A DNA stretch of 64,000 nucleotides from Candidatus Aenigmatarchaeota archaeon (lineage in GTDB: Archaea > Aenigmatarchaeota > Aenigmatarchaeia > QMZS01). The notes under the pieces were generated by a model. It was not told the origin of the DNA, did not search any database, and saw nothing but the letters and a program-made list of their open reading frames with translations. The stretch lies in assembly GCA_030600555.1 (NCBI GenBank), contig JAUVLW010000001.1, forward strand, positions 6,411 through 70,410, read 5' to 3'. The position numbers and the translations under genes were made by a program. Below, in pieces: positions 387 to 61,715 of this stretch; the stretch's first letter is position 1; each line of letters opens with the position of its first letter.

Positions 387-574
387 GCTTCAGTAGCTCA
401 GCAGGTAGAGCATCTGGCTGTTAACCAGGAGGTCGAAGGTTCGAGGCAACCCTTTTCAAGGTAATTGTTGAAAAAGGTCTGCACCCCAAAAATGCTCATC
501 TTTAGATGGCACCCCTTTTTGCATCGCAAAAAGAAGGACTTAATTGGGGTGAAATGAAAATCCTTCCTGAAGCG
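387..574 (+). tRNA. tRNA-Asn (anticodon GTT) with ~115 nt intron inside the T-loop
   Basis: Read directly from sequence: acceptor GCTTCAG / CTGAAGC plus discriminator G; D-arm GCTC-AGCAGGTA-GAGC; anticodon arm TCTGG-CTGTTAA-CCAGG; variable loop AGGTC; T-stem GAAGG (435-439) / CCTTC (562-566). The T-loop TTCGA|..|AT is interrupted by 445..559. The region is GC-rich in an AT-rich background. Exons: 387..444 and 560..574. Confidence 0.75.
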
Positions 575-2011: not shown

Positions 2012-2244
2012 TGCTCCCGCCGGGATTCTCATATACCCTAAAATTACTTTTTGGGGTGCAGACCTTTTTCAACAATCACGCTGAAAAGGGTTGCTTTGAA
2101 CCCGGGTCACCGGCTGTCTCCATGTCATAGACTTTGCGTCTCATACCTTTCTTTATTAACCAATTTCTTGGTTCGGGTGTCGGCCTTTTTTTAAAGGCTG
2201 ACTTCGAAAGGCCGGGATCCTGGACCGAGCTAGACTACAGGAGC
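2012..2244 (-). tRNA. tRNA-Glu (anticodon TTC) with two introns: canonical 37/38 position (~89 nt) and T-loop (~69 nt)
   Basis: Minus-strand read: GCTCCTG-TA-GTCT-AGCTCGGTCCA-GGAT (classic tRNA-Glu D-arm); anticodon stem CCGGC/GCCGG with loop CTTTCG|A; variable TGAC; T-stem CCGGG/CCCGG; acceptor 3' CGGGAGC + A. Exons: 2244..2205, 2115..2096, 2026..2012. Introns: 2204..2116 and 2095..2027. Confidence 0.7.
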
Positions 2245-2360
2245 ATAAATATTTAATTATTAATTTTTTAAAAGGTGGGTAAACAGCTTTATTGAGTATA
2301 TTCAAATAATTTTATAGATTGCCAGACCTCTATATATTTTATCTGGCTGAGATACAGAAA

Positions 2361-3083
2361 TTAATCTATTAGAGAATCCAAATATTCTTTTTCAAGGAAA
2401 TGTAGTTTACCGGGGATTATAATAACACAGAGAAAGCAATCCTGATTGAGCAGGTTTTTTATTTTATCATATCTTAAAATTTGTTCACTGCTTCCTGCTT
2501 TGCAAAAAACAACAACTTCAGTTTCTTCTGAAAGAAGATTTTTTTTGAATTTATTTTCCAGCTCAAGCAATATTTTTAACCCTTCACCACAGGTCATAAG
2601 TTTTTCTTTTGTGATATCCAGAAGGAATAATGTGTGCGCATCCTGTTTAAGATTATCTTCAAGTAGATTATAAGGCGCTTCAGAATAATAATAGGATATT
2701 GTTGAGACTTTCCCAAATTTATAAATTTGCAATCCTGTTTCTCCGATTGCGGAAAATATAGAACTTGAATGTATTATTTTTGTTTCAACTCCGGATTTTT
2801 TTGCGTCAAGCAGAATTGAATTATGAGTTGTCGCAATCAGAGAATCTCCGGGAACCAACAAAGCAACATCTTTTTCTTTTGCGGTGTCCAGAATATTATT
2901 GATATTATTTTCTAAATCTTCCCTCTCCACCGTTTCTGCATCAATACCCAGACTTTCTAAATCCCCTTTCCATAAACTTGTGTATCTTTCGATGAGAACT
3001 TTATCGCACTTTTTTGCGGCTTCCAAACCTTTAATAGAAATATCTTTTTCATCCCAGAGACCAATACCAATTAAATATAACAT
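2361..3083 (-). CDS. dph5: diphthine synthase (Dph5)
   Basis: MLYLIGIGLWDEKDISIKGLEAAKKCDKVLIERYTS.. is a tetrapyrrole-methylase-fold diphthine synthase signature, ~240 aa. The start is moved to an internal Met to avoid overlap with the upstream gene. Confidence 0.85.
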   Translation of the reverse strand: MLYLIGIGLWDEKDISIKGLEAAKKCDKVLIERYTSLWKGDLESLGIDAETVEREDLENNINNILDTAKEKDVALLVPGDSLIATTHNSILLDAKKSGVETKIIHSSSIFSAIGETGLQIYKFGKVSTISYYYSEAPYNLLEDNLKQDAHTLFLLDITKEKLMTCGEGLKILLELENKFKKNLLSEETEVVVFCKAGSSEQILRYDKIKNLLNQDCFLCVIIIPGKLHFLEKEYLDSLID

Positions 3084-3084
3084 A

Positions 3085-4209
3085 TCAACACAAAATTTCA
3101 CCTTCTCCGATTACTATTTTAGGATGGGCTCCTAATGAAAAAGGGTCTTCTTTCCACACAATTAAAGACGCGAGTTTATTTTCTTTTATTTCTCCGATTT
3201 CTTTTGCACCAATAATTTCAGCATTCTGTTTGGTTATTATTGAGATGCATTCTGCTTTGCTGAGACCAAAGTATTTGAAGAATCTTAATTGCAAAAATAA
3301 ATTTCTTTGAAGGACTACAGGATGGTCGCTTATCAAACCATATTTTAAATTAGATTTTGCAAGAAGTCCTATATTTTTCCAACTTTCATTTTTTAATTCA
3401 ACTTTAGGCGGGAAGGAATCCACAGGACCATATACCACAGGGAATCCTGAATCTTTGATTATTTTAAATCCTCTTTCTGTGTTTATGTCGCATGCGTGAT
3501 TTATCACAATGTTTTTTAGTTTGAATTCTTTTGCTATTCTAATTATTGCAATTATATCATCTTCTTTATGAACATGAATCATTAATCTTTCTTTGTTTTC
3601 AATTATCCTAATTAAATGTTCAGTTAAATAACCAATTTCTTCGGGTTTCTTTTTTTTCTTTTCAATGAGTTTTTTTGCTTTTACCGCTTCCGATAATTTG
3701 CTTCTCAAAAGATATGCTGCCCCCATTCTTGTATAAGGTCTTGAGCCTTTCCATTCAGTTGTGCTTCTTGGGTTGTAACCAAAAGCCATCTTGATTCCAG
3801 TGTATTTCATAAATGCTTCTTCGGCGTTTTTTGCGTAATTTTTTATTAAGACGCATCGCCCTCCAATTATATTTCCGCTTCCAGGCATTATATTTGAGTA
3901 TAAAATTCCATGCTCAACAGATTCTGAAAATGCTTTGTCTTCAAGATAAATTGAATCCAAAGGGTCTGCAAAAAGGAAAGGTCCCATAGGGTCGTTAGCT
4001 TCATCTTCCTGATAAGGTTCGCCGCTTCTGCATAATCCAATATGGCAATGAGAATCCACAAATGCTGGTGTAACAATTCCTTCACCAATAATTTCGCATT
4101 TTGGTTTTGTTGCGGTAATTTTTTTAATCTTTTTATCAAATATAATATAAACATTTTCTTTTGTGTTTTTTGAACCATCATACAATAATTTCGCTTTTAC
4201 CGCTTTCAT
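3085..4209 (-). CDS. amidohydrolase-family metal-dependent hydrolase
   Basis: PAFVDSHCHIG (an HxH metal-binding motif) near the N-terminus, and a C-terminal Asp-containing segment of the TIM-barrel amidohydrolase superfamily. 374 aa. Confidence 0.65.
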   Translation of the reverse strand: MKAVKAKLLYDGSKNTKENVYIIFDKKIKKITATKPKCEIIGEGIVTPAFVDSHCHIGLCRSGEPYQEDEANDPMGPFLFADPLDSIYLEDKAFSESVEHGILYSNIMPGSGNIIGGRCVLIKNYAKNAEEAFMKYTGIKMAFGYNPRSTTEWKGSRPYTRMGAAYLLRSKLSEAVKAKKLIEKKKKKPEEIGYLTEHLIRIIENKERLMIHVHKEDDIIAIIRIAKEFKLKNIVINHACDINTERGFKIIKDSGFPVVYGPVDSFPPKVELKNESWKNIGLLAKSNLKYGLISDHPVVLQRNLFLQLRFFKYFGLSKAECISIITKQNAEIIGAKEIGEIKENKLASLIVWKEDPFSLGAHPKIVIGEGEILC

Positions 4210-4231: not shown

Positions 4232-4570
4232 TTATAATAATTTGAGGTCTTTAATTAATTCATCAATTTTTTTGTCTTCTGCAGGACCAATCCCGAGGCA
4301 GGTAATTGTTGCGCTTGGAAGTTGGGTTAACCCGGCATCAATTACTAGATAATTTGGCAGGTTTTTTTCAAATACTCTTTTTTGTAATTCTATCAGTTCC
4401 ATTTCATCTTTAACTTTCAGAACAATTTTTTTGGCTCCTTCTTTTTCCCAGATTTCTCTCAATTGTTTATCCGCTCTTTTATAGGAACCTATGCTTGCAT
4501 GAGCAACCTGAGCCGCAATTTTTCCTTTACCCATTTTTAGATTAGTTCTAACAATAATTACTTGTTTCAT
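4232..4570 (-). CDS. pth2: peptidyl-tRNA hydrolase, archaeal type (Pth2)
   Basis: MKQVIIVRTNLKMGKGKIAAQVAHASIGSY.. is a diagnostic Pth2 N-terminus. ~113 aa after trimming a 16 aa ORF-track extension. Confidence 0.85.
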   Translation of the reverse strand: MKQVIIVRTNLKMGKGKIAAQVAHASIGSYKRADKQLREIWEKEGAKKIVLKVKDEMELIELQKRVFEKNLPNYLVIDAGLTQLPSATITCLGIGPAEDKKIDELIKDLKLL

Positions 4571-5170
4571 ATATACATTCAAATTATAATTATGCTTAAG
4601 AAAACTAATGAAATGCATGAAATTTCAAACAAAAAACTCCCTAGATTTTTAGTTTATCTAATTTCATTTGTCGCATTTTTTGTTTCTTCACTCCTGTTAC
4701 TTTTCACATTGCCTTATATGATATTTGTTTCAGATTTATTAGGTTATGCAGCAATAATTATTTTTTCTGTAATACTTGGTTTATTGTTTAAGTTTCTTTT
4801 AGATAAAAGTGAATGTAAGAATCTGGATTATATTCTATTGCCTGTTATTCTTTCAACAATAAGCACTATTGTTTTTGGTTTTCTAAAATATATGGAATTG
4901 ATGTTTCAATTTATTAGCAATGCAGATCGGGTTTTTTCAGGATTGCCAAATTCATATTCTTCATTAGTAAATTTTCCAAGTACTGATTTGTTATTTTTCT
5001 TGTTAATGGTGTTGTTTAACTTAAGTTTTGTCTACAAATATCTACAGAATTCCGGTGATAAAAGATATATCTTTTTGTATATAATTCCCATAGTCTGTTA
5101 TTTTTTAATATCTTTTGCAGTTGGGGTCTTGTTTGGCTCTTCAATGAGTATGGGTTTAGCTCCAATATAA
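4562..5170 (+). CDS. hypothetical polytopic membrane protein
   Basis: 202 aa with 5-6 hydrophobic helices. No recognisable motif. Confidence 0.4.
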   Translation: MFHIYIQIIIMLKKTNEMHEISNKKLPRFLVYLISFVAFFVSSLLLLFTLPYMIFVSDLLGYAAIIIFSVILGLLFKFLLDKSECKNLDYILLPVILSTISTIVFGFLKYMELMFQFISNADRVFSGLPNSYSSLVNFPSTDLLFFLLMVLFNLSFVYKYLQNSGDKRYIFLYIIPIVCYFLISFAVGVLFGSSMSMGLAPI

Positions 5171-5203: not shown

Positions 5204-5644
5204 TTATTTCTTAGGTGTTGCTATAATTCCGCCTAAACCCGCAGAGGCAATCTGATGGATAACCCCGGAAGTCATGTTTGCGACATCTTGTATTTCTCCA
5301 GCTGAGATATTTAAGGTATTTGGTTTTAGAATTTCAATTGAACTTGGACCATAAGAAATAGTTATAACCATAAGGGTTTTCAAATCCTGAACCATTGCTT
5401 CGGTTTCAACAATCTGCGAGTATGCAAATTCAATGCCTTTCATTGGTTTTTCAACCTTTTCTATTTTGCTGAAGTCTTTTTTATAGACTAAAGATGTTTT
5501 TATTTTCTCTAGTTTATCAATATGTTCTTTCAGGCTTTTCTCCACAATTTCTTTATTCATCCCAAGAACTTCAAATATAAGGTTAACTTTCATCCATTTT
5601 TTAGCTTCAAGCTCTTTCATTTTGCATTTTAGTTCTGCGTCCAT
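5204..5644 (-). CDS. hypothetical protein (N-terminal coiled coil)
   Basis: 146 aa ORF with clean codon structure. Family not recognised. Confidence 0.4.
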   Translation of the reverse strand: MDAELKCKMKELEAKKWMKVNLIFEVLGMNKEIVEKSLKEHIDKLEKIKTSLVYKKDFSKIEKVEKPMKGIEFAYSQIVETEAMVQDLKTLMVITISYGPSSIEILKPNTLNISAGEIQDVANMTSGVIHQIASAGLGGIIATPKK

Positions 5645-5729: not shown

Positions 5730-6038
5730 CTATTTGTAAGGGTTTCTGTAGCTTATTTCCAGTCCTCCGCCAATAGTTCTTCTGGCTTTGGTGTAATAGT
5801 TTAATTCTGTGTACTCGCCTAATAATTGGTTTATTATCGCAGTTTTCAGCTTAAATTCCGGAACTTTTTCAAGGTCCTCAAGATTGATAAAATAAGGGCG
5901 TACCCCTGAGTGGTCTTCGGTTTCATCCCATCCATATCCAATATGAGGTTTTTTACCATGAACTCTTATTTCTTCTTCATCAGGGATAAATAAGATATTT
6001 TCTCCTATATGTATAATTCGGTTTTCAGGTGATTCCAT
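5730..6038 (-). CDS. hypothetical protein
   Basis: The ORF-track version (to 6167) runs through the 3' exon and intron of tRNA-Leu, so it is trimmed to the internal Met (MESPENRIIHIG..). Confidence 0.4.
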   Translation of the reverse strand: MESPENRIIHIGENILFIPDEEEIRVHGKKPHIGYGWDETEDHSGVRPYFINLEDLEKVPEFKLKTAIINQLLGEYTELNYYTKARRTIGGGLEISYRNPYK

Positions 6039-6061
6039 AAAAATACCTAAAAGTTTAAAAA

Positions 6062-6251
6062 TGCAGGAGGGGAGACTTCCGGTAAGATGTAATTTTAGTT
6101 TCTTTTGCTTAAGGTGTTTCTTTTCTAAAGACATTCGTCCTTTGGACGATGCATCGTTGCGAAGCAACTAATGAAATCTTATTCGAACTCCCGAACCGAC
6201 TAACAGACAGAGTCCTTAGCCCTGCGCCTTTGACCACTTGGCTACCCCTGC
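6062..6251 (-). tRNA. tRNA-Leu (class II; anticodon reads AAG) with ~110 nt intron in the T-loop
   Basis: Minus-strand read: GCAGGGG-TA-GCC-AAGTGGTCAAA-GGC-G-CAGGG-CTAAGGA-CTCTG, long variable arm TCTGTTAGTCGGTTC, T-stem GGGAG ... CTCCC, acceptor 3' CTCCTGC + A73. The T-loop TTCGA.. is interrupted by ~6077..6186. The A34 anticodon is unusual for archaea. Confidence 0.65.
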
Positions 6252-6402
6252 ATAATATTAAATAAAGTAAATTCTTAAGTGAATGTTATGGTTGATTATT
6301 TGTATAGTTTTGAAAATAATGAAATTAGGGTTTTTGATGAAAATACCCGTGTAAAATTAGTTAAAGAGTTCTGCGTTTGATAATCTGAATAAGTTCAGCT
6401 AA

Positions 6403-7593
6403 TTAACAAAAATCAAATATTCTTCTTTGGGTTAATAGTTTGCTTTTTTTATTGTATTCTTCAATAGGAAGTCTTAATTTTGCGTTTAAGAAATTGAACA
6501 GTTCATTTAAATTTGTAAATTTATCATAGTTTAGTTTGAAAGCATTTCTTATCCCTTCCCTGACTTCCCACACCCCAACAGGAATTTCATATCCTTCGTG
6601 AATTTCTCTTATCACAATTGCTCTTGCTTGCTTTTTCATTCTTAACAAACCCTCGGCAACAGCGAACCTTGCGGCGTAATAACCCCCGCTCTGTGAAATT
6701 GCGTATTTTTTCCTTCCTCCGCATCCTTCATGTTCTATAGTTACACTCGGTTCTTTTCCCTGAAGGTTCCATAAAGTACCCGGGAACCAGGATTCAAATT
6801 GTTCAAATTCCCAGTTTCCCGGAATCAGGATAATGTAATAATAGTTATCAAGATAATTGTTTGTGAATAAAAAATATTCATTAACAGAATCAAAGTCATT
6901 TATTTGTTTTATAAAATGTTTCCCTAACAAATCATCCATTGCTGTGATGCTCCATCTTGTTGGCACAATTTTCTTTTTTACCCCGAGAACCCCTGAACTC
7001 AGAATTTTTGAAATCTGTGAAACTTCAAATTTTGAGTTGTAGAATTCTATTGCGGCGTCATTTGCTTTCATTTCCCCGTCAATCAGACCATAAACTTTTT
7101 TTGTGATTTTAGGATTATCCACCAGTTTTATTTTATTTACTTCCCCGCTCGCTCCCATTGGCTGAGTGATTGTTGAGAATGATTGCAAGAATGAAGGTTT
7201 CTTTGAGAAATTGATTTCCAGGTCCACAGGTTTTATTGAAAGAGTTATGTCCTGCAACTCCTGAATATATCTGTCTTTTGTGAAAATATTTTTTTTCAAT
7301 TTACCCCTTACAAGAGAATATCTGTCTTTGACAATGCTGTTAAGATCCATACCGTACATTTTTTCAGGTGTATCTTGTCTTTCAAGATTGGACTCATTCA
7401 GTGAAATCATAGGTCCGACTAATAAATTAGGATATCCTTCATGACCAACAAAAACAGATTTTGGGGAAGGTCCAAACAAAGTTTCCTTGATTTTTGGGGT
7501 TGAGATTTTTTGGTAATATATTTTTGTCAGCAATGGGCATTTATCCCTCCCACACAATTTTCTTACTCCTTTGCAGATTAAACATAAGTTCAT
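6403..7593 (-). CDS. hypothetical protein with N-terminal Cys4 zinc-ribbon motif (possibly Nre-family DNA-repair-associated protein)
   Basis: N-terminus CLICKGVRKLCGRDKCP is a CxxC..C..C motif. ~396 aa. The Nre assignment is from memory only. Confidence 0.35.
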   Translation of the reverse strand: MNLCLICKGVRKLCGRDKCPLLTKIYYQKISTPKIKETLFGPSPKSVFVGHEGYPNLLVGPMISLNESNLERQDTPEKMYGMDLNSIVKDRYSLVRGKLKKNIFTKDRYIQELQDITLSIKPVDLEINFSKKPSFLQSFSTITQPMGASGEVNKIKLVDNPKITKKVYGLIDGEMKANDAAIEFYNSKFEVSQISKILSSGVLGVKKKIVPTRWSITAMDDLLGKHFIKQINDFDSVNEYFLFTNNYLDNYYYIILIPGNWEFEQFESWFPGTLWNLQGKEPSVTIEHEGCGGRKKYAISQSGGYYAARFAVAEGLLRMKKQARAIVIREIHEGYEIPVGVWEVREGIRNAFKLNYDKFTNLNELFNFLNAKLRLPIEEYNKKSKLLTQRRIFDFC

Positions 7594-42763: not shown

Positions 42764-43639
42764 ATGGAGTGGTATGTATTTGCTTTTGCCTGCGCTTTTG
42801 TGGTTTCACTTGCCGCCATAACCGAAAAAAGAACATTAATCAAAGAGCATGCAATGGAATTCTCCACAGTTCTTGCAATATTCAACTTTATATTATCCAT
42901 CCCTTTATTGGTCTTTGCGGATTTTAGCATATTTTATAACTCAATAGATTTGCTTATTTTAATTTATTGCGCCTCGCTTCTTGGAAGTATTGCTTTTCTG
43001 TTAATTGCGAAAAGCATGAGACATATGGATATTTCAAGGGTATCCCCATTACTTAATTTCAGTCCTGCTGTAGTGGCTGTATTGGCATTTGTACTTTTAG
43101 GTGAAAAACTTACTTTGATTCAAATATTTGGTATTGTGATCCTCATGATTGGCGCTTATCTGTTAGAATCAAAAAATGGCATGAAAACTTTTTCAAAAAC
43201 AATGAAAGAGTTTACGACTTCAAAATATATTTTTTATATTGTTATTTCTTTTTTTCTCTATGGTTTAAGTTCAATAATTGATAAGTATTCCCTTGGGTTT
43301 ATGACTCCTGTTACTTATCTGGCAACCCTGCAATTTTTTATAGCAATAAATTTTATTGTGATGATAAGTCTATTTCATAATGGGGTCTCTGGAATAAAAA
43401 ACGGGATTAATAGAGCCGGGAAATGGATATTCCTTGTTGCTGTATTTACTGTATCTTATAGACTTCTGCAGTTGCAGGCAGTATCAATGGCATATGTAAG
43501 TCTGGTAATACCAATTAAAAAATTAGGAACTCTTTTTTCAACAATAATCGGAGGTAAAGTGTTCCATGAAAAAGATTTATTGAAAAAAGGTATTGCCTGT
43601 CTGGTTATGCTTATTGGGGTGTATTTGATAGTTATCTGA
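42764..43639 (+). CDS. EamA/DMT-superfamily transporter
   Basis: 10 TM helices. ..VLLGEKLTLIQIFGIVILMIGAYLL.. is typical of EamA domains. Confidence 0.7.
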   Translation: MEWYVFAFACAFVVSLAAITEKRTLIKEHAMEFSTVLAIFNFILSIPLLVFADFSIFYNSIDLLILIYCASLLGSIAFLLIAKSMRHMDISRVSPLLNFSPAVVAVLAFVLLGEKLTLIQIFGIVILMIGAYLLESKNGMKTFSKTMKEFTTSKYIFYIVISFFLYGLSSIIDKYSLGFMTPVTYLATLQFFIAINFIVMISLFHNGVSGIKNGINRAGKWIFLVAVFTVSYRLLQLQAVSMAYVSLVIPIKKLGTLFSTIIGGKVFHEKDLLKKGIACLVMLIGVYLIVI

Positions 43640-44726: not shown

Positions 44727-45419
44727 TCATTTATTAAGGTAATATTTTCTCTTAGTTTCATCAAATTTTTCAATTGAATACCGCAACATTGTCCTTGGCA
44801 TGGTTTTATGGTATTTTTCAAGGAAAGTTTCCTCTGTTTTTTGGTCTCTTTTTCCGATTTCTCTCAGCATCCACCCAACCGCTTTGTGGATTAAATCGTG
44901 GTTGTCGTTTAGGAGAATTTCTGATATTTTTAGGGTATCTTCAAATTCGTTGTTTTTTATGAATGTATGTGTTGAGATTATTGAAATTCTTTTTTCCCAC
45001 AGGTTTTTTGAGTTGGCGAGTTTGTATAGAATTTTTCTGTCTTTGTTTAGGAGGTAGTTTCCAATAATATGGGGGGCTGAGATATCAACCAAATCCCAGT
45101 TATTGATATTGGTTGTGTTCTTCAGGTAAAAGTCAAATATTTTTTTCTTTTCGGTTTCATCTGATTTCCTGTATTTGTCAATGAGTATAAATAAGGAACA
45201 TGCCCTGTATTCGTGGATGTTTGTTGATAATAATTCCTGCAATTCTTCAAGGGATAAGTTGATATATTTCTTTGCAATCTTTCTTTGCTCGGGAACAATG
45301 ATTCCAAGAAAAGTATCTCCTTCTCCATACTCGCCTTTTCCAGTTTTAAAAAATCTTAGATAAACTTTTGCTTTCTCCGGGTTTTTTAGGGATTGGAGTT
45401 CTTGTTTTAGTGTTGGCAT
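44727..45419 (-). CDS. DNA alkylation repair enzyme (AlkD/AlkC HEAT-like repeat family)
   Basis: ..NNWDLVDISAPHIIG...LWEKRISIIST...HDLIHKAVGWMLREIGK.. is the AlkD-family pattern. Confidence 0.75.
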   Translation of the reverse strand: MPTLKQELQSLKNPEKAKVYLRFFKTGKGEYGEGDTFLGIIVPEQRKIAKKYINLSLEELQELLSTNIHEYRACSLFILIDKYRKSDETEKKKIFDFYLKNTTNINNWDLVDISAPHIIGNYLLNKDRKILYKLANSKNLWEKRISIISTHTFIKNNEFEDTLKISEILLNDNHDLIHKAVGWMLREIGKRDQKTEETFLEKYHKTMPRTMLRYSIEKFDETKRKYYLNK

Positions 45420-45509
45420 AATATTTTTGACATATTAATTTAGTTGTGGGTTGATGAACCCACTTATTTTTCAAGCAGACAATTTTTACCTTCCAGCATA
45501 AAAAATAAA

Positions 45510-46463
45510 TTATGCGCGGGAAGATGGTTTAAGCAGTTGTTTGTAAAAGGATATGTTGATTGTTTCCCCCTCAATATCTTCAATATATCTTGTTATGTCA
45601 TCCAGATAATTTTGGATGGTTTTATTATTAATCTGCGAGATAAGATTATTTATTTTTTTGAAGTCACTATCTTTTGTCTTTTCAAAAATTTTAGATGTTT
45701 TATGGATGAGATGACTTATAGTTCCGTTAAGTTTATATTTAATAAATGTTAAAATTTCTTTTTTGTTTTCAAAACAGGTTTCATGTTTATTTAAATATTC
45801 TCCGAGTCTGTAAAGATCATCTCCAATATTCTCTAATTTCTTGCTTATCAAAAAATATGAAGGAATCAACGATGTATTTTTTATTTTTGATGAATGCAGA
45901 ATCTTTGAATCTGTAAGCGATAATGAAATAAGTTTTGTCCCCAGATGATATAATCTGTCAATTTCATTTTCATTTATTCTTATTTCTTCAATATCTATTT
46001 CATTTAAAATGTTTGAAAGAGATAATTCAAGTATGGTATTTATCCGGTAAAATATTTGGTAAATGGTGACTTTTGATTCGTCCAGCAGTATTTTTAGGGT
46101 AATCTTTTTATTGTCTTCATAGGTTATTTCAGTCCCGCTCATATGCGCCAGAGTTTTTCTGATTTTTGTTTTGACTTCTTTTGTCAACTCTTTTTTGGAA
46201 TATAGATTGATATTTTCAATTCCAAGGTAATATAATACAAATACAATCTGGTCGATATTATTGAGGTATTCATCAATATTCAGGGAAATCTCATCCATTT
46301 TTTTTCTTTTGATTAAATGAGAAGACAAGAGCAATGTTTGGTTATCTTTTTCATAAATCAATAGTTCATCTTTTTCTTTTAATTTATTCTTTTTAACCCA
46401 TTCCTTTGGCAATGAAATGGAATAAGTGCTGCCCGCAATCAATTGTATTTTTCTCCTGTGCAT
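45510..46463 (-). CDS. phoU: phosphate uptake regulator, AbrB/SpoVT N-terminal domain fused to PhoU-like domain
   Basis: The N-terminal RKIQLIAGSTYSISLPKEWVKKNKLKEKDEL is a swapped-hairpin AbrB/MazE-like domain. The rest is a helical PhoU-like repeat region. Divergent from pstS. Confidence 0.6.
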   Translation of the reverse strand: MHRRKIQLIAGSTYSISLPKEWVKKNKLKEKDELLIYEKDNQTLLLSSHLIKRKKMDEISLNIDEYLNNIDQIVFVLYYLGIENINLYSKKELTKEVKTKIRKTLAHMSGTEITYEDNKKITLKILLDESKVTIYQIFYRINTILELSLSNILNEIDIEEIRINENEIDRLYHLGTKLISLSLTDSKILHSSKIKNTSLIPSYFLISKKLENIGDDLYRLGEYLNKHETCFENKKEILTFIKYKLNGTISHLIHKTSKIFEKTKDSDFKKINNLISQINNKTIQNYLDDITRYIEDIEGETINISFYKQLLKPSSRA

Positions 46464-59154: not shown

Positions 59155-60717
59155 ATGGTTTTTGGAAAAGAAGAGCTAATTGTGCCAGATACTTCAGTAT
59201 TAATATCAAAGAAACTTACTGAATTAATTGACAACGGACAACTGAAAAAAGTAAAAGTTCTTGTTCCTGAATTTGTTATTGATGAACTTCAGGCTCAGGC
59301 AAACAAAGGCAAAGAAATCGGTTTTCTGGGTTTGGAAGAAATTAAGGAATTAAGGAAACGAAATGTAAAACTTGAATTTGTGGGAAGGAAGCCGACAATA
59401 GACGAAATAAAACTCGCAAAGAAAGGAAGAATTGACGCATTAATAAGAGAACTCGCTCAGAAACACAAAGCAACTTTATACACAAGGGATTTTGTGCAGG
59501 CGCTTGTTGCGGAAGTTTTTGGCGTAAAAGTAAAATTCATTAAAACCCCGCATAAAAAAGCGGATCTTAAATTTTTAAAATTGCTCACAAAAGATACAAT
59601 GTCCCTGCATTTTAAAGTGAATTGCGTCCCTCTGGCAAAAAGGGGACACCCTGGAAAATGGGACTTAAAAAAAGTCGGGAAAGAAAAACTTTCAAAGTCA
59701 AAATTTGAGCAACTTGCATCCAGCATACTCAAAGAGATTAGAGGAAAGAATTTTGCTTTTGTTGAGTTTGAAGAATATGGGGCTATGGTTTTGCAGATAA
59801 GGGATATGAGAATCTCAATTACAAGACCCCCATTTTCAGACGCGGAGGAGATAACAATTGTGCGACCAATAGCGAAATTGGGCATTGATGATTATGAACT
59901 TTCAGAGAAACTTAAAAAGAGAATAACTGACGAAGCCGGAGGAATTCTTATTTCTGGGCCTCCTGGAAGCGGCAAATCAACTCTGGCCGCGAGTCTTGCT
60001 GAATTTTATCAGAAGCAGGATAAGATTGTAAAGACAATGGAACAGCCGAGGGATTTGCAGGTAAATGAAAAAATAACCCAGTACGCTCCGTTGGCAAAAT
60101 CATTCGCAAAGACCGCGGAAATATTATTATTGGTCAGACCTGATTACACAATTTTCGATGAGATAAGAACCTCTTTTGACTTTAAGATTTTTAGTGATTT
60201 AAGGCTTGCAGGCGTTGGGATGGTTGGGGTGATTCATGCTTCCAAACCAATTGATTCAATCCAGAGATTTGTTAACAAAGTTGAACTTGGGATGCTCCAT
60301 AATATCGTGGATACAATAATTTTTGTGAAGGACGGTAAAATAGAAGAAGTTTATTCCACGGATTTAATAGTGAGGGTTCCCACAGGAATGAGGGATTCTG
60401 ATCTTGCAAGACCTTTAATGGAAATCAGGTCATTTGAAACCGGAAAACTTGAGTATGAAATTTATTCTTTCGGAGACGAAACCATTGTTATTCCAATTGA
60501 AGAGTTTGATGAAAAAGAAGTGGAAAAAAAAATCAAGCAAATAAAAAAAGAAATCAGCAAGTATGATAAAAATGCTGTAATAGAACATACTTCAGGAACT
60601 GATTTCAGGGTTTATGTTAATAAAAAAATAATTGCTAAATTAATCGGTCGCGGGGGGAAAGGTATTGATAAGCTGGAAACTAAACTTAAGGCTCATCTTG
60701 ATATTCTTGAACGGTAA
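59155..60717 (+). CDS. PIN domain + PhoH/PilT-like ATPase + KH domain protein (COG1855-type)
   Basis: N-terminal LIVPDTSVLIS (PIN), Walker A ISGPPGSGKSTLA, and C-terminal IIAKLIGRGGKGIDKL (KH GXXG). Confidence 0.65.
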   Translation: MVFGKEELIVPDTSVLISKKLTELIDNGQLKKVKVLVPEFVIDELQAQANKGKEIGFLGLEEIKELRKRNVKLEFVGRKPTIDEIKLAKKGRIDALIRELAQKHKATLYTRDFVQALVAEVFGVKVKFIKTPHKKADLKFLKLLTKDTMSLHFKVNCVPLAKRGHPGKWDLKKVGKEKLSKSKFEQLASSILKEIRGKNFAFVEFEEYGAMVLQIRDMRISITRPPFSDAEEITIVRPIAKLGIDDYELSEKLKKRITDEAGGILISGPPGSGKSTLAASLAEFYQKQDKIVKTMEQPRDLQVNEKITQYAPLAKSFAKTAEILLLVRPDYTIFDEIRTSFDFKIFSDLRLAGVGMVGVIHASKPIDSIQRFVNKVELGMLHNIVDTIIFVKDGKIEEVYSTDLIVRVPTGMRDSDLARPLMEIRSFETGKLEYEIYSFGDETIVIPIEEFDEKEVEKKIKQIKKEISKYDKNAVIEHTSGTDFRVYVNKKIIAKLIGRGGKGIDKLETKLKAHLDILER

Positions 60718-60734: not shown

Positions 60735-61715
60735 ATGAATAAATCTGAATTTGTTGGGTTGCTGAACGACCTCGAATGGGAAGATTTTGAAGTCAGGGAA
60801 ACAAAAAAAGATAGTTTAAAAAACAGCATGGAATCATTAAGCGCTTTTTCAAATACTGCGGGAGGCTGGATTGTTTTTGGGGTTAAAAAAACCCCGGGAA
60901 ATTATGAAATTATTGGAGTTTCTGAACCACAGGAACTTAAACAGGACGTCTCCTTATTGTTGAAAGAAGCTGAGTTCAATCAAAAAATAAAAATAAAATG
61001 CGTGAGCTACAGGCTGAACCGAAAAATTCTTTTGGCATTTTATATCCCGCCTTCGGAAAACAAACCAGTTTATTTTAATTCCATGGAAAATACTTTTGTA
61101 AGAACTTTCAGAGGCAACAGAATCGCAACGCACGAGGAAATTGATATTATGATTACAAACACTTCTTTAGGGAAAGAAGACACTTATTCTTTGAACAGTG
61201 CAAGCGTTTTCTCTGAAAACGATGGAATTGAACCCAGAGAGTTTACAATTGATGATGTGGATTTGGAGAAAGTTAAAAATCAGGAATTGCAGTTTAGGAA
61301 TATTGCTCCGAAACGCAAACAGGAAAATATCCTTCAGGAAAAATGCAAGGAACTAAAACCAGTAGCAGATTATCCAACAGAATTAATTAAGAAAACTTCT
61401 GATTATTCCGGAGAAGTTGAATCTGTTGAATCTAAAAATAATTCTGAGGTTCCCCCAGGAAATAACAAATATGAGGGTGATTATTCAAATGGAGCCCAGA
61501 ATAATTATTCCGGCGAATCCTCAGAAGAAAAAAACAATAAAGAGTATTCAGAAAATATTAAACCTGTGAAAGACCTGCGATTAGAAAATTTTAATCATAA
61601 AGACACTTTAAAAGGTCATATAGAAGGATACACAAAGGAACAGATTATAGAATACAAAAAAGACCCAAAAAAGGATTACAAGCAGGATTACCCGAAAAAA
61701 TCAGAGGATTCTTAG
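60735..61715 (+). CDS. protein with N-terminal AlbA_2/Schlafen-like putative DNA-binding domain and low-complexity C-terminal half
   Basis: ..ESLSAFSNTAGGWIVFGVKK.. matches the AlbA_2 (PF04326) core. The C-terminal 150 aa are N/S/E/K-rich. Confidence 0.5.
   Translation: MNKSEFVGLLNDLEWEDFEVRETKKDSLKNSMESLSAFSNTAGGWIVFGVKKTPGNYEIIGVSEPQELKQDVSLLLKEAEFNQKIKIKCVSYRLNRKILLAFYIPPSENKPVYFNSMENTFVRTFRGNRIATHEEIDIMITNTSLGKEDTYSLNSASVFSENDGIEPREFTIDDVDLEKVKNQELQFRNIAPKRKQENILQEKCKELKPVADYPTELIKKTSDYSGEVESVESKNNSEVPPGNNKYEGDYSNGAQNNYSGESSEEKNNKEYSENIKPVKDLRLENFNHKDTLKGHIEGYTKEQIIEYKKDPKKDYKQDYPKKSEDS

Follow-up and report, generated by a model that had tools for sequence, protein, structure and literature searches.

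A conserved tRNA-Leu(AAG) gene split by a T-loop intron in Aenigmatarchaeota

Introduction

Archaea have been described as having neither transfer RNA (tRNA) genes whose anticodons begin with adenosine (ANN) nor a deaminase for adenosine at position 34 (A34) (PMC8007984, PMC11066159), and a survey counted three ANN genes among 10,517 archaeal tRNAs (10.64898/2026.05.15.725136). The subject of this work is a tRNA-Leu gene with the anticodon AAG, interrupted in its T-loop by an intron between tRNA positions 59 and 60 (59/60), in a stretch of 64,000 nucleotides from Candidatus Aenigmatarchaeota archaeon (assembly GCA_030600555.1, contig JAUVLW010000001.1, positions 6,411 to 70,410), referred to below as the window. 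Comparisons of sequence confirm that this gene is real and conserved, and the rule that archaea lack A34, which has been used in arguments on the evolution of the genetic code and of eukaryotic decoding, fails for a deep and widespread clade of Aenigmatarchaeota. An initial annotation of the window had taken tRNA-Arg(ACG) as the usual archaeal user of inosine, which is the bacterial pattern, archaea being described as without ANN genes (PMC8007984, PMC11066159).

The closest described system, and the one earlier case, is that of ARMAN-4 and ARMAN-5, which like Aenigmatarchaeota are ultrasmall DPANN archaea, for which Fujishima et al. (2011) reported a tRNA-Leu(AAG) whose G34 synonym, GAG, is absent; the same study described introns at 59/60 in ARMAN-2 (PMC3239211). 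A tRNA-Leu with A34 is already known in DPANN, so that the AAG gene of Aenigmatarchaeota is a neglected exception of limited novelty. What is new in comparison with ARMAN-4 and ARMAN-5 is the phylum, the conservation of one locus across a deep clade with covariation, the intron that is always found at 59/60, sometimes together with introns in the D-loop or the variable arm, and the coexistence with a near-identical paralogue with the anticodon UAG. Among bacteria, the Lactobacillales (Oenococcus, Leuconostoc, Streptococcus and Lactobacillus) show a comparable situation, in which AAG replaces GAG beside UAG in AT-rich reduced genomes and has been retained over long evolutionary time (PMC8007984; 10.64898/2026.05.15.725136). 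They differ in that bacteria possess TadA, which converts A34 to inosine (I34) where this was tested, and in that the bacterial genes are intronless. The tRNA-Thr(AGU) gene of Mycoplasma (Andachi et al. 1987, as cited in 10.64898/2026.05.15.725136) is a further parallel. Its A34 likewise serves a four-fold box, in a genome that is small and AT-rich, and it is a possible model of inosine-free decoding, although it belongs to another amino acid and another domain of life. Its A34 is reportedly unmodified, whereas for Aenigmatarchaeota we infer such a state.

Results

Structure of the tRNA-Leu(AAG) gene

Direct reading of the minus strand bore out the class II tRNA-Leu of the initial annotation, with its D arm GCC/GGC, long variable arm and A73, and also the contiguous AAG anticodon and the T-loop intron, on whose removal ARAGORN returned tRNA-Leu(aag). 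The mature tRNA comprises 84 nt, and CCA is not encoded. From its 5' end it consists of the acceptor strand GCAGGGG, the bases UA, a D stem GCC/GGC with the loop AAGUGGUCAAA, G26, an anticodon stem CAGGG/CUCUG, a 15-nt variable region UCUGUUAGUCGGUUC with the stem CUG/CGG, a T stem GGGAG/CUCCC in which UUCGAA precedes the intron and U60 follows it, the acceptor 3' strand CUCCUGC and A73. The anticodon loop C32-U33-A34-A35-G36-G37-A38 (CUAAGGA, 6219..6213) has U33 and G37 in register; its AAG pairs with the leucine codon CUU, and A34 is encoded in the genome within a four-codon box, which is what is expected first of an I34-tRNA. The universal tRNA bases U8, A14, G18-G19, A21, U33, a purine at 37, U54-U55-C56, A58 and C61 were all present by reading and alignment. 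In alignments, an A/T-rich box CTTAAGAATTT is kept ahead of the AAG genes as well as ahead of the UAG paralogue L026, and is a candidate promoter element. Archaeal transcription terminates at oligo-T, and the T-run that adjoins the gene is a likely transcription stop.

ARAGORN reported zero tRNAs in the raw 64-kb window, and the Rfam tRNA model missed the Leu gene even at E<=10, its sole match in the window being a partial tRNA at 394-455, for which reason the intron was taken out by hand. With the insert removed in silico, tRNA-Leu(aag) was returned by ARAGORN for every plausible splice pair, and also for all 19 complete spliced homologues described below. No C/D-box or other Rfam family matched the Leu intron. 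The AAG case has probably been overlooked until now because such genes are split at non-canonical sites and are missed by default tRNA finders, and DPANN inventories in which tRNAs are listed as 'missing' should rest on searches that allow for split genes.

Conservation and covariation of the AAG locus

The gene was recovered at 24 loci from independent assemblies, which yielded 19 complete genes and 11 distinct mature sequences. Judged by a 7-bp acceptor stem, a D stem of 3-4 bp, 5-bp anticodon and T stems and a long variable arm, these are cloverleaves of archaeal class II tRNA-Leu: all 23 pairs are kept as standard pairs in the 11 sequences (253/253 stem cells), and 12 of the 23 have changed on both sides in a compensatory manner. 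None of 500 shuffled controls reached the observed value on any measure, and pairing dropped to 35-55% in slid controls. All seven positions of the anticodon loop are unchanged across the 11 sequences. The leucine identity elements are kept as well, A73 and the variable loop UUAGU being the same in 11/11; the leucyl-tRNA synthetase (LeuRS) of H. volcanii recognises A73 and the variable-loop bases A47c/G47d.

The relatives that carry the AAG gene beside NreA, MJ0538-family and PTH2 genes span a wide divergence, with NreA identities falling from 92% to 54%. On the contigs whose NreA is 92% and 90% identical, the same tRNA has NreA on its upstream side and the MJ0538-family and PTH2 genes on its downstream side, and is separated from NreA by one or two additional genes (a beta-propeller protein, and in L001 also a trehalase-like one); the exons are identical or nearly so, and the introns comprise 45 and 64 nt at the same site. 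Exon 1 is identical or near-identical in L001, L002 and L007. At NreA identities of 63%, 58% and 54%, a tRNA-Leu with the CUAAGGA loop follows NreA immediately, and two of these loci possess a second intron in the D-loop. The stems of the distant homologues have changed to GGA/UCU in the D arm, CUGGA/UCCAG and CAGGG/CCCUG in the anticodon arm, and GCCGG and GGCGG in the T arm, with changes in the variable stem also. A34 has been kept by selection while the rest of the tRNA-Leu and its introns changed.

A scan of a genome collection with an exact D-arm pattern followed by CUNAGG returned 43 loci, with T at position 34 in 36, A in 6, C in 1 and G in none; the six A34 loci are GTDB species genomes, three of them titled Aenigmatarchaeota and three 'uncultured archaeon'. 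A metagenome scan, with V at position 34, gave at least 120 matches, mostly tRNA-Leu(CAG) of soil archaea, and at least nine more AAG contigs (GC 0.31-0.44) were among the matches listed.

Table 1. Positions in the window of the tRNA-Leu(AAG) gene, its parts and its neighbours
Feature	Position	Strand	Remarks and evidence
pre-tRNA-Leu(AAG), whole gene	6062..6251	-	190 nt; reading, ARAGORN after intron removal, covariation
Exon 1: acceptor 5' strand, D arm, anticodon arm, variable arm, T stem 5' strand, T-loop 54-59 UUCGAA	6182..6251	-	
Anticodon AAG	6215..6217	-	A34 at 6217; direct reading; loop unchanged in every AAG homologue
T-loop U54-U55-C56-G57, 5' strand of central 4-bp helix	6184..6187	-	pairs with CGGA 6081..6078 in minimum free energy (MFE) fold
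Intron between tRNA positions 59 and 60	6076..6181	-	106 nt; alignment with relatives, MFE fold
Intron 3' end CGGA-AG	6076..6081	-	CGGA is 3' strand of central helix; 3' splice site in bulge
Exon 2: U60, T stem 3' strand CUCCC, acceptor 3' strand CUCCUGC, A73	6062..6075	-	
A/T-rich box CTTAAGAATTT, candidate archaeal TATA-type promoter	6269..6279	-	18-28 nt upstream of mature 5' end
T-run TTTTT, likely transcription stop	6057..6061	-	directly after A73
Small conserved open reading frame, about 102 aa	5730..6038	-	starts 24 nt after the tRNA
NreA, upstream syntenic anchor	6403..7593	-	Pfam Nre_N and Nre_C; synteny
MJ0538-family gene, downstream syntenic anchor	5204..5644	-	PF27325 on orthologues; tblastn synteny
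PTH2	4232..4618		beyond the MJ0538-family gene

The T-loop intron and its splice motif

The insertion had been put at about 110 nt in the initial annotation; the insertion itself stands, and its length is 106 nt. A cut at 60/61 yields the same mature sequence as one at 59/60, because U flanks both junctions. In the relatives, introns of 40-140 nt occupy the same 59/60 site. In the MFE fold of the precursor, the T stem is stacked on a 4-bp helix between U54-G57 and CGGA, with a 3-nt bulge of A-G and exon U60 on the 3' strand and A58-A59(-U) on the 5' strand, and an inner helix UAAGAU/AUCUUA comes next. The central helix, taken as positions 54-57 against the four bases before the last two intron bases, is fully paired in 17 of 19 distinct introns; G57 pairs with C or U, and where position 57 is A the intron partner switches to U in two of four cases. 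The relaxed hBH/HBh' form of the motif was found, and excision always restores UUCRAAU and the T stem. The archaeal splicing endonuclease EndA was not found in a Pfam survey of 57 open reading frames (ORFs) of the window. Loop-bearing EndA occurs in several DPANN lineages, in an analysis that Aenigmatarchaeota fell outside (PMC5829648).

The described introns that come closest are the hBH introns of pre-tRNA-Cys and pre-tRNA-Pro in ARMAN-2, which share the 59/60 site, the T stem as outer helix, the 4-bp central helix and the 3-nt bulge (PMC3239211). As with other non-canonical archaeal tRNA introns, related introns are common to different tRNA genes of one genome; intron transposition has been described in Thermoproteales (Fujishima 2010, as cited in PMC3239211). 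In contrast to introns of the ARMAN-2 type, those described here are long (40-140 nt), and one module occurs in both T-loop and D-loop introns.

Two further tRNA genes of the window are split in their T-loops, namely tRNA-Asn(GUU) at 387-574 (+), 188 nt, with an intron at 59/60, and tRNA-Glu(UUC) at 2012-2244 (-), 233 nt, with introns at or near 37/38 and at 59/60; the Asn gene was partly detected by Rfam and the Glu gene was not, and ARAGORN detected neither. Their T-loop introns have a common 47-nt core with 94% identity (GCAACCCUUUUC..UUGAAAAAGGUCUGCACCCCAAAAA). The Leu intron had initially been called unrelated to this core, which holds for the window copy, since it shows no significant similarity elsewhere in the window, the core included, and fails for the orthologous Leu introns of L007 and L050, which carry it. 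As orthologous Leu introns occur with and without the core, the site stays fixed while its intron content is replaced. The docking helix uses the near-universal T-loop UUCR, so that any tRNA could in principle accommodate an intron with the 3' end YGRR-NN, and such docking would explain the introns found at this site in Asn and Glu tRNAs of the window and in Ile and Ser tRNAs of relatives.

The introns in the relatives were observed in tRNA-Ile(GAU) (L053, about 6046, -) and in class II tRNA-Ser(UGA) (L080, about 712, -). Both are similar to the T-loop intron of tRNA-Leu in their own or a sister genome, UUCAAAAGGCUUUUUGGCAAAGUCAAACCG being present in both the Leu and Ile introns of L053, so that introns look homogenised within a genome. 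A recurring module, (C/G)A(N)CCCUUU-loop-AAAGGUCU(G)..(A/C)CCCCAAA, also written ..CCCUUU-loop-AAAGGUCUG..CCCCAAA, was seen within introns of different genomes, in the T-loop of Leu, Asn and Glu tRNAs and in the D-loop of Leu tRNAs (L007 7832-7985; L050 9182-9307; the D-loop introns of L128, L140 and L141; the Asn and Glu introns of the window). It suggests a mobile or functionally constrained intron family, and the module could be a binding site of an endonuclease or other protein, or a small RNA. The Leu intron of the window also has an extra 42 nt compared with its L002/90%-NreA relatives (window 6136-6168, -), comprising two short hairpins, GUUGC-UUC-GCAAC and CGUCC-AAA-GGACG, around the palindrome GAUGCAUC; no second copy of this two-hairpin insert was found in the window.

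Leucine isoacceptors and codon usage

Several relatives have a near-identical tRNA-Leu(UAG) upstream of rpl5, whose anticodon arm departs from that of the AAG gene at position 34 only, whose intron likewise lies at 59/60 and whose promoter box is similar; within one genome, the two genes are distinguished by 5 of 84 positions. Both are present in assembly GCA_030614705.1 (JAUWTN01), with the AAG gene on JAUWTN010000026.1 (L007), whose mature tRNA is identical to that of the window, and the UAG gene on JAUWTN010000008.1 (L182). Since the two coexist in one assembly, AAG is assigned to CUU and CUC and UAG to the purine-ending CUN codons, and the AAG tRNA does for CUU and CUC what G34 does in other archaea. 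The UAG gene of L026 was considered as an orthologue of the AAG gene and rejected, as it stands elsewhere in the genome, upstream of rpl5, and one assembly contains both UAG and AAG.

The initial annotation had suggested a search for other isoacceptors such as GAG. UAG was found in the sister genome, and no tRNA-Leu(GAG) appeared in the 43 genome matches or the 120 metagenome matches listed, by scans that were non-exhaustive and used narrow exact D-arm/anticodon-arm patterns. Five metagenome matches with an apparent G34 proved not to be tRNAs. By analogy with ARMAN-4, ARMAN-5 and the Lactobacillales, tRNA-Leu(GAG) has presumably been lost.

The window contains 416 CUU, 114 CUC, 117 CUA and 208 CUG codons, CUU making up 49% of CUN. 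CUA is rarer than CUG (117 vs 208), whereas A-ending codons exceed G-ending ones by 2.6:1 in the other four-fold boxes. Codon contrasts between AAG-carrying loci and loci with a UAG match only are too weak to separate I34 from A34. Over 28 kb of coding sequence, codon use is odd for 33% GC, with CUG > CUA, CAG >= CAA and UUG high, and the other boxes strongly favour A over G at the third position.

Some UAG genes upstream of rpl5 show further peculiarities. In L177-L180 (about 3725-3955) the gene apparently has four interruptions, a D-loop mini-intron and introns at 37/38, in the variable arm and at 59/60; the maximum then known per archaeal tRNA gene was three (Fujishima 2011). In L175 (GCA_023659975.1, about 3768-3985) the loop reads CCUAGGA with the anticodon UAG, and the tRNA has C33 in place of the near-universal U33, a first pair G1:C72 and a wobble U2:G71.

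Proposed processing and decoding pathway

The 190-nt precursor would be transcribed from the A/T-box promoter and end at the T-run. Before splicing, U54-G57 would pair with CGGA near the intron 3' end and produce a relaxed bulge-helix-bulge, with the T stem as outer helix, the bulge A-G-U60, the 4-bp helix, A58-A59(-U) opposite and the inner helix AAGAU/AUCUU. The archaeal splicing endonuclease would then cut at 59/60 and a ligase join the exons, so that the T-loop forms only afterwards, and CCA would be added after splicing. LeuRS would charge the tRNA through A73 and the long variable arm with its unchanging UUAGU loop; as this recognition is independent of the anticodon, A34 would leave leucine identity unchanged. 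The tRNA-Leu(AAG) would read CUU by Watson-Crick A:U pairing and also cover CUC, and the paralogous tRNA-Leu(UAG) would read CUA and CUG. A34 may thus hold the place of the G34 (GAG) of other archaea, as in ARMAN-4, ARMAN-5 and the Lactobacillales. We regard it as very probable that this is a functional, expressed tRNA-Leu(AAG) gene of an Aenigmatarchaeota (DPANN) archaeon with processing and decoding of this kind.

Several points weigh against this pathway. Expression, splicing and charging are predicted from sequence, and we infer the enzymes involved and the modification state. The strict hBHBh' motif, two 3-nt bulges around a 4-bp helix, is not seen in the Leu intron: its 3' half is canonical, but an internal loop (2x1 or 3x2) takes the place of a clean 3-nt bulge on the 5' side, which is why the motif is classed as relaxed. 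CUC is not depleted, its ratio to CUU (0.27) lying within the 0.19-0.74 of other NNC/NNU pairs, and such normal use is no less compatible with inosine, or with a GAG tRNA that escaped detection, than with a weak A:C reading. The D-arm/anticodon-arm scans can miss GAG paralogues hidden by introns or sequence variants. Finally, the bacterial tRNA-Leu(AAG) that were tested (Oenococcus and Streptococcus) are deaminated by TadA (as cited in 10.64898/2026.05.15.725136).

Modification state of A34 and alternative explanations

Without modification, A34 pairs preferentially with U and to a modest degree with C (PMC11066159), and we give even chances that A34 stays unmodified in this tRNA; a state other than unmodified or inosine is unlikely. 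Possible, though doubtful, is deamination of A34 to I34, by which tRNA-Leu(IAG) would read CUU, CUC and CUA in the manner of eukaryotes and Lactobacillales, the enzyme being either an archaeal deaminase that has escaped recognition or one of TadA type gained by horizontal transfer. A34 has been held by selection over a deep divergence, which goes with I34 in bacteria and eukaryotes (PMC8007984), but archaea are without a known A34 deaminase (PMC8007984; 10.64898/2026.05.15.725136). CUC is used at a normal rate, as I34 would allow, and the rarity of CUA relative to CUG fits poor I:A pairing; however, the UAG tRNA already covers CUA, and the same shortfall of CUA, measured against A-ending codons in other boxes, was found in the other Aenigmatarchaeota loci, which carry a UAG gene. 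The other tRNAs seen in the clade have G34 or U34 instead of A34 (Asn GUU, Ile GAU, Glu UUC and Ser UGA), and nothing therefore points to general use of A34 or inosine.

TadA-family 'nucleoside deaminase' genes do exist in some DPANN, which speaks for I34, and in L037 (Anstonellales) one of them stands beside a tRNA-Leu(CAG). As for the TadA/ADAT homologue to be looked for according to the initial annotation, no ORF with a cytidine-deaminase fold was detected by a motif scan of the window and other clade loci, about 220 kb in all and less than whole genomes, and no deaminase in the Pfam survey of the window. On outgroup contigs, the deaminase genes beside NreA look like dCMP deaminases (motif scan of L049; precomputed Pfam of L048). 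Over all loci, the motif scan brought up no candidates other than the L049 gene and the TadA-like one of L037. A literature search for TadA in DPANN gave false matches only.

The L037 gene, from Candidatus Anstonellales (Micrarchaeota), another DPANN class, encodes a 162-aa TadA-family protein with HAE..CEPCPMC at 2147-2650 (+) and directly adjoins the tRNA-Leu(CAG) gene at 2704-2732 (-). The best NCBIfam match of the protein is TadA, with a score of 69 bits that falls short of the cut-off of 150. Guanine/nucleoside deaminases of Micrarchaeia and bacteria make up its homologues, the best 120 of which include no Aenigmatarchaeota; nothing follows from them for the Aenigmatarchaeota clade.

A tentative extension, to which we lend limited credence, is that the Aenigmatarchaeota clade, perhaps together with ARMAN-4 and ARMAN-5, makes I34 in tRNA-Leu with an unrecognised archaeal deaminase. 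Were this true, the archaeal domain would have its first case of wobble inosine, and eukaryote-like decoding with A34 instead of G34 would have arisen in archaea, independently or by gene transfer. The AAG locus offers a defined test between unmodified A34 and an unknown archaeal deaminase for the decoding of CUU and CUC.

It is rather improbable that a tRNA-Leu(GAG) is still present and that AAG is a redundant extra copy tuned to the abundant CUU. Such a gene would explain normal CUC use, and pattern scans can miss intron-split or divergent GAG genes, as happened with the UAG gene of L182, which the genome-collection scan missed for one D-loop difference, together with all genes with D-loop introns. 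However, no G34 tRNA was among the genome matches or the metagenome matches listed, and the documented cases of stable tRNA-Leu(AAG) are all without GAG, both in ARMAN-4 and ARMAN-5 (PMC3239211) and in Lactobacillus, Lactococcus and Streptococcus (10.64898/2026.05.15.725136).

The initial annotation had also left room for a misparse or a pseudo-tRNA, and to each of these we assign next to no chance. A misparse would mean a standard anticodon (UAG, GAG or UAA) reached through another fold, a small extra intron or a shifted loop, and hidden introns are a fair concern because D-loop, anticodon-loop, variable-arm and T-loop introns occur in the lineage (L038, L052, L053, L177); but the 17 nt of the anticodon arm are uninterrupted, the 5-bp stem of this arm covaries around a constant 7-nt loop (CAGGG/CUCUG, CAGGG/CCCUG, CUGGA/UCCAG, CUGGC/GCCAG), a shift by one base would place C at 33, the UAG paralogue has the same arm with position 34 alone changed, and no alternative fold gives a standard anticodon. 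A pseudo-tRNA, destroyed by the T-loop insertion and bearing A34 as a mutation in a relic or an assembly error, would account for the failure of standard detectors and for an A34 said to be absent from archaea, but the gene keeps the same genomic position at 24 loci of independent assemblies, its stems change by compensatory substitutions only while its loops are unchanged, its introns turn over but keep the splice helix and the exact insertion site, and T-loop introns of this kind also interrupt the neighbouring Asn and Glu genes, which makes the insertion the lineage's normal gene architecture. With the loop unchanged and the stems covarying across orthologues, a pseudogene, an assembly error and a misread anticodon are therefore ruled out.

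Genomic neighbourhood and host lineage

The closest homologues of the window NreA are from Candidatus Aenigmatarchaeota metagenome-assembled genomes. The assignment of the downstream anchor to PF27325 comes from orthologues on related contigs, a direct Pfam scan of the window ORF giving no family. A 145-aa ORF at 5730..6167 that overlaps the tRNA was rejected as an upstream over-extension of the small conserved ORF, since the homologous region in L007 and L001 starts after the tRNA. The window has a GC content of 32-35% and encodes the archaeal proteins L15e, aIF2-gamma, exosome subunits, FttA/aCPSF1, S4e, diphthamide synthase and SerRS; no LeuRS was found among the 57 ORFs of the Pfam survey.

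Possible defence or toxin-antitoxin genes were observed elsewhere in the window, namely a fusion of PIN with a secretion-ATPase-like/STAND NTPase at 59155-60717 (+), the adjoining protein with a Schlafen AlbA_2 domain at 60735-61715 (+), and a MazE-domain protein of 317 aa at 45510-46463. Sub-threshold Rfam C/D-box matches at 45406-45984 (+) and 42832-42927 (-), to SNORD73, snoR66 and snoZ13 with E values of 1.8-7.7, may mark archaeal C/D box sRNA genes.

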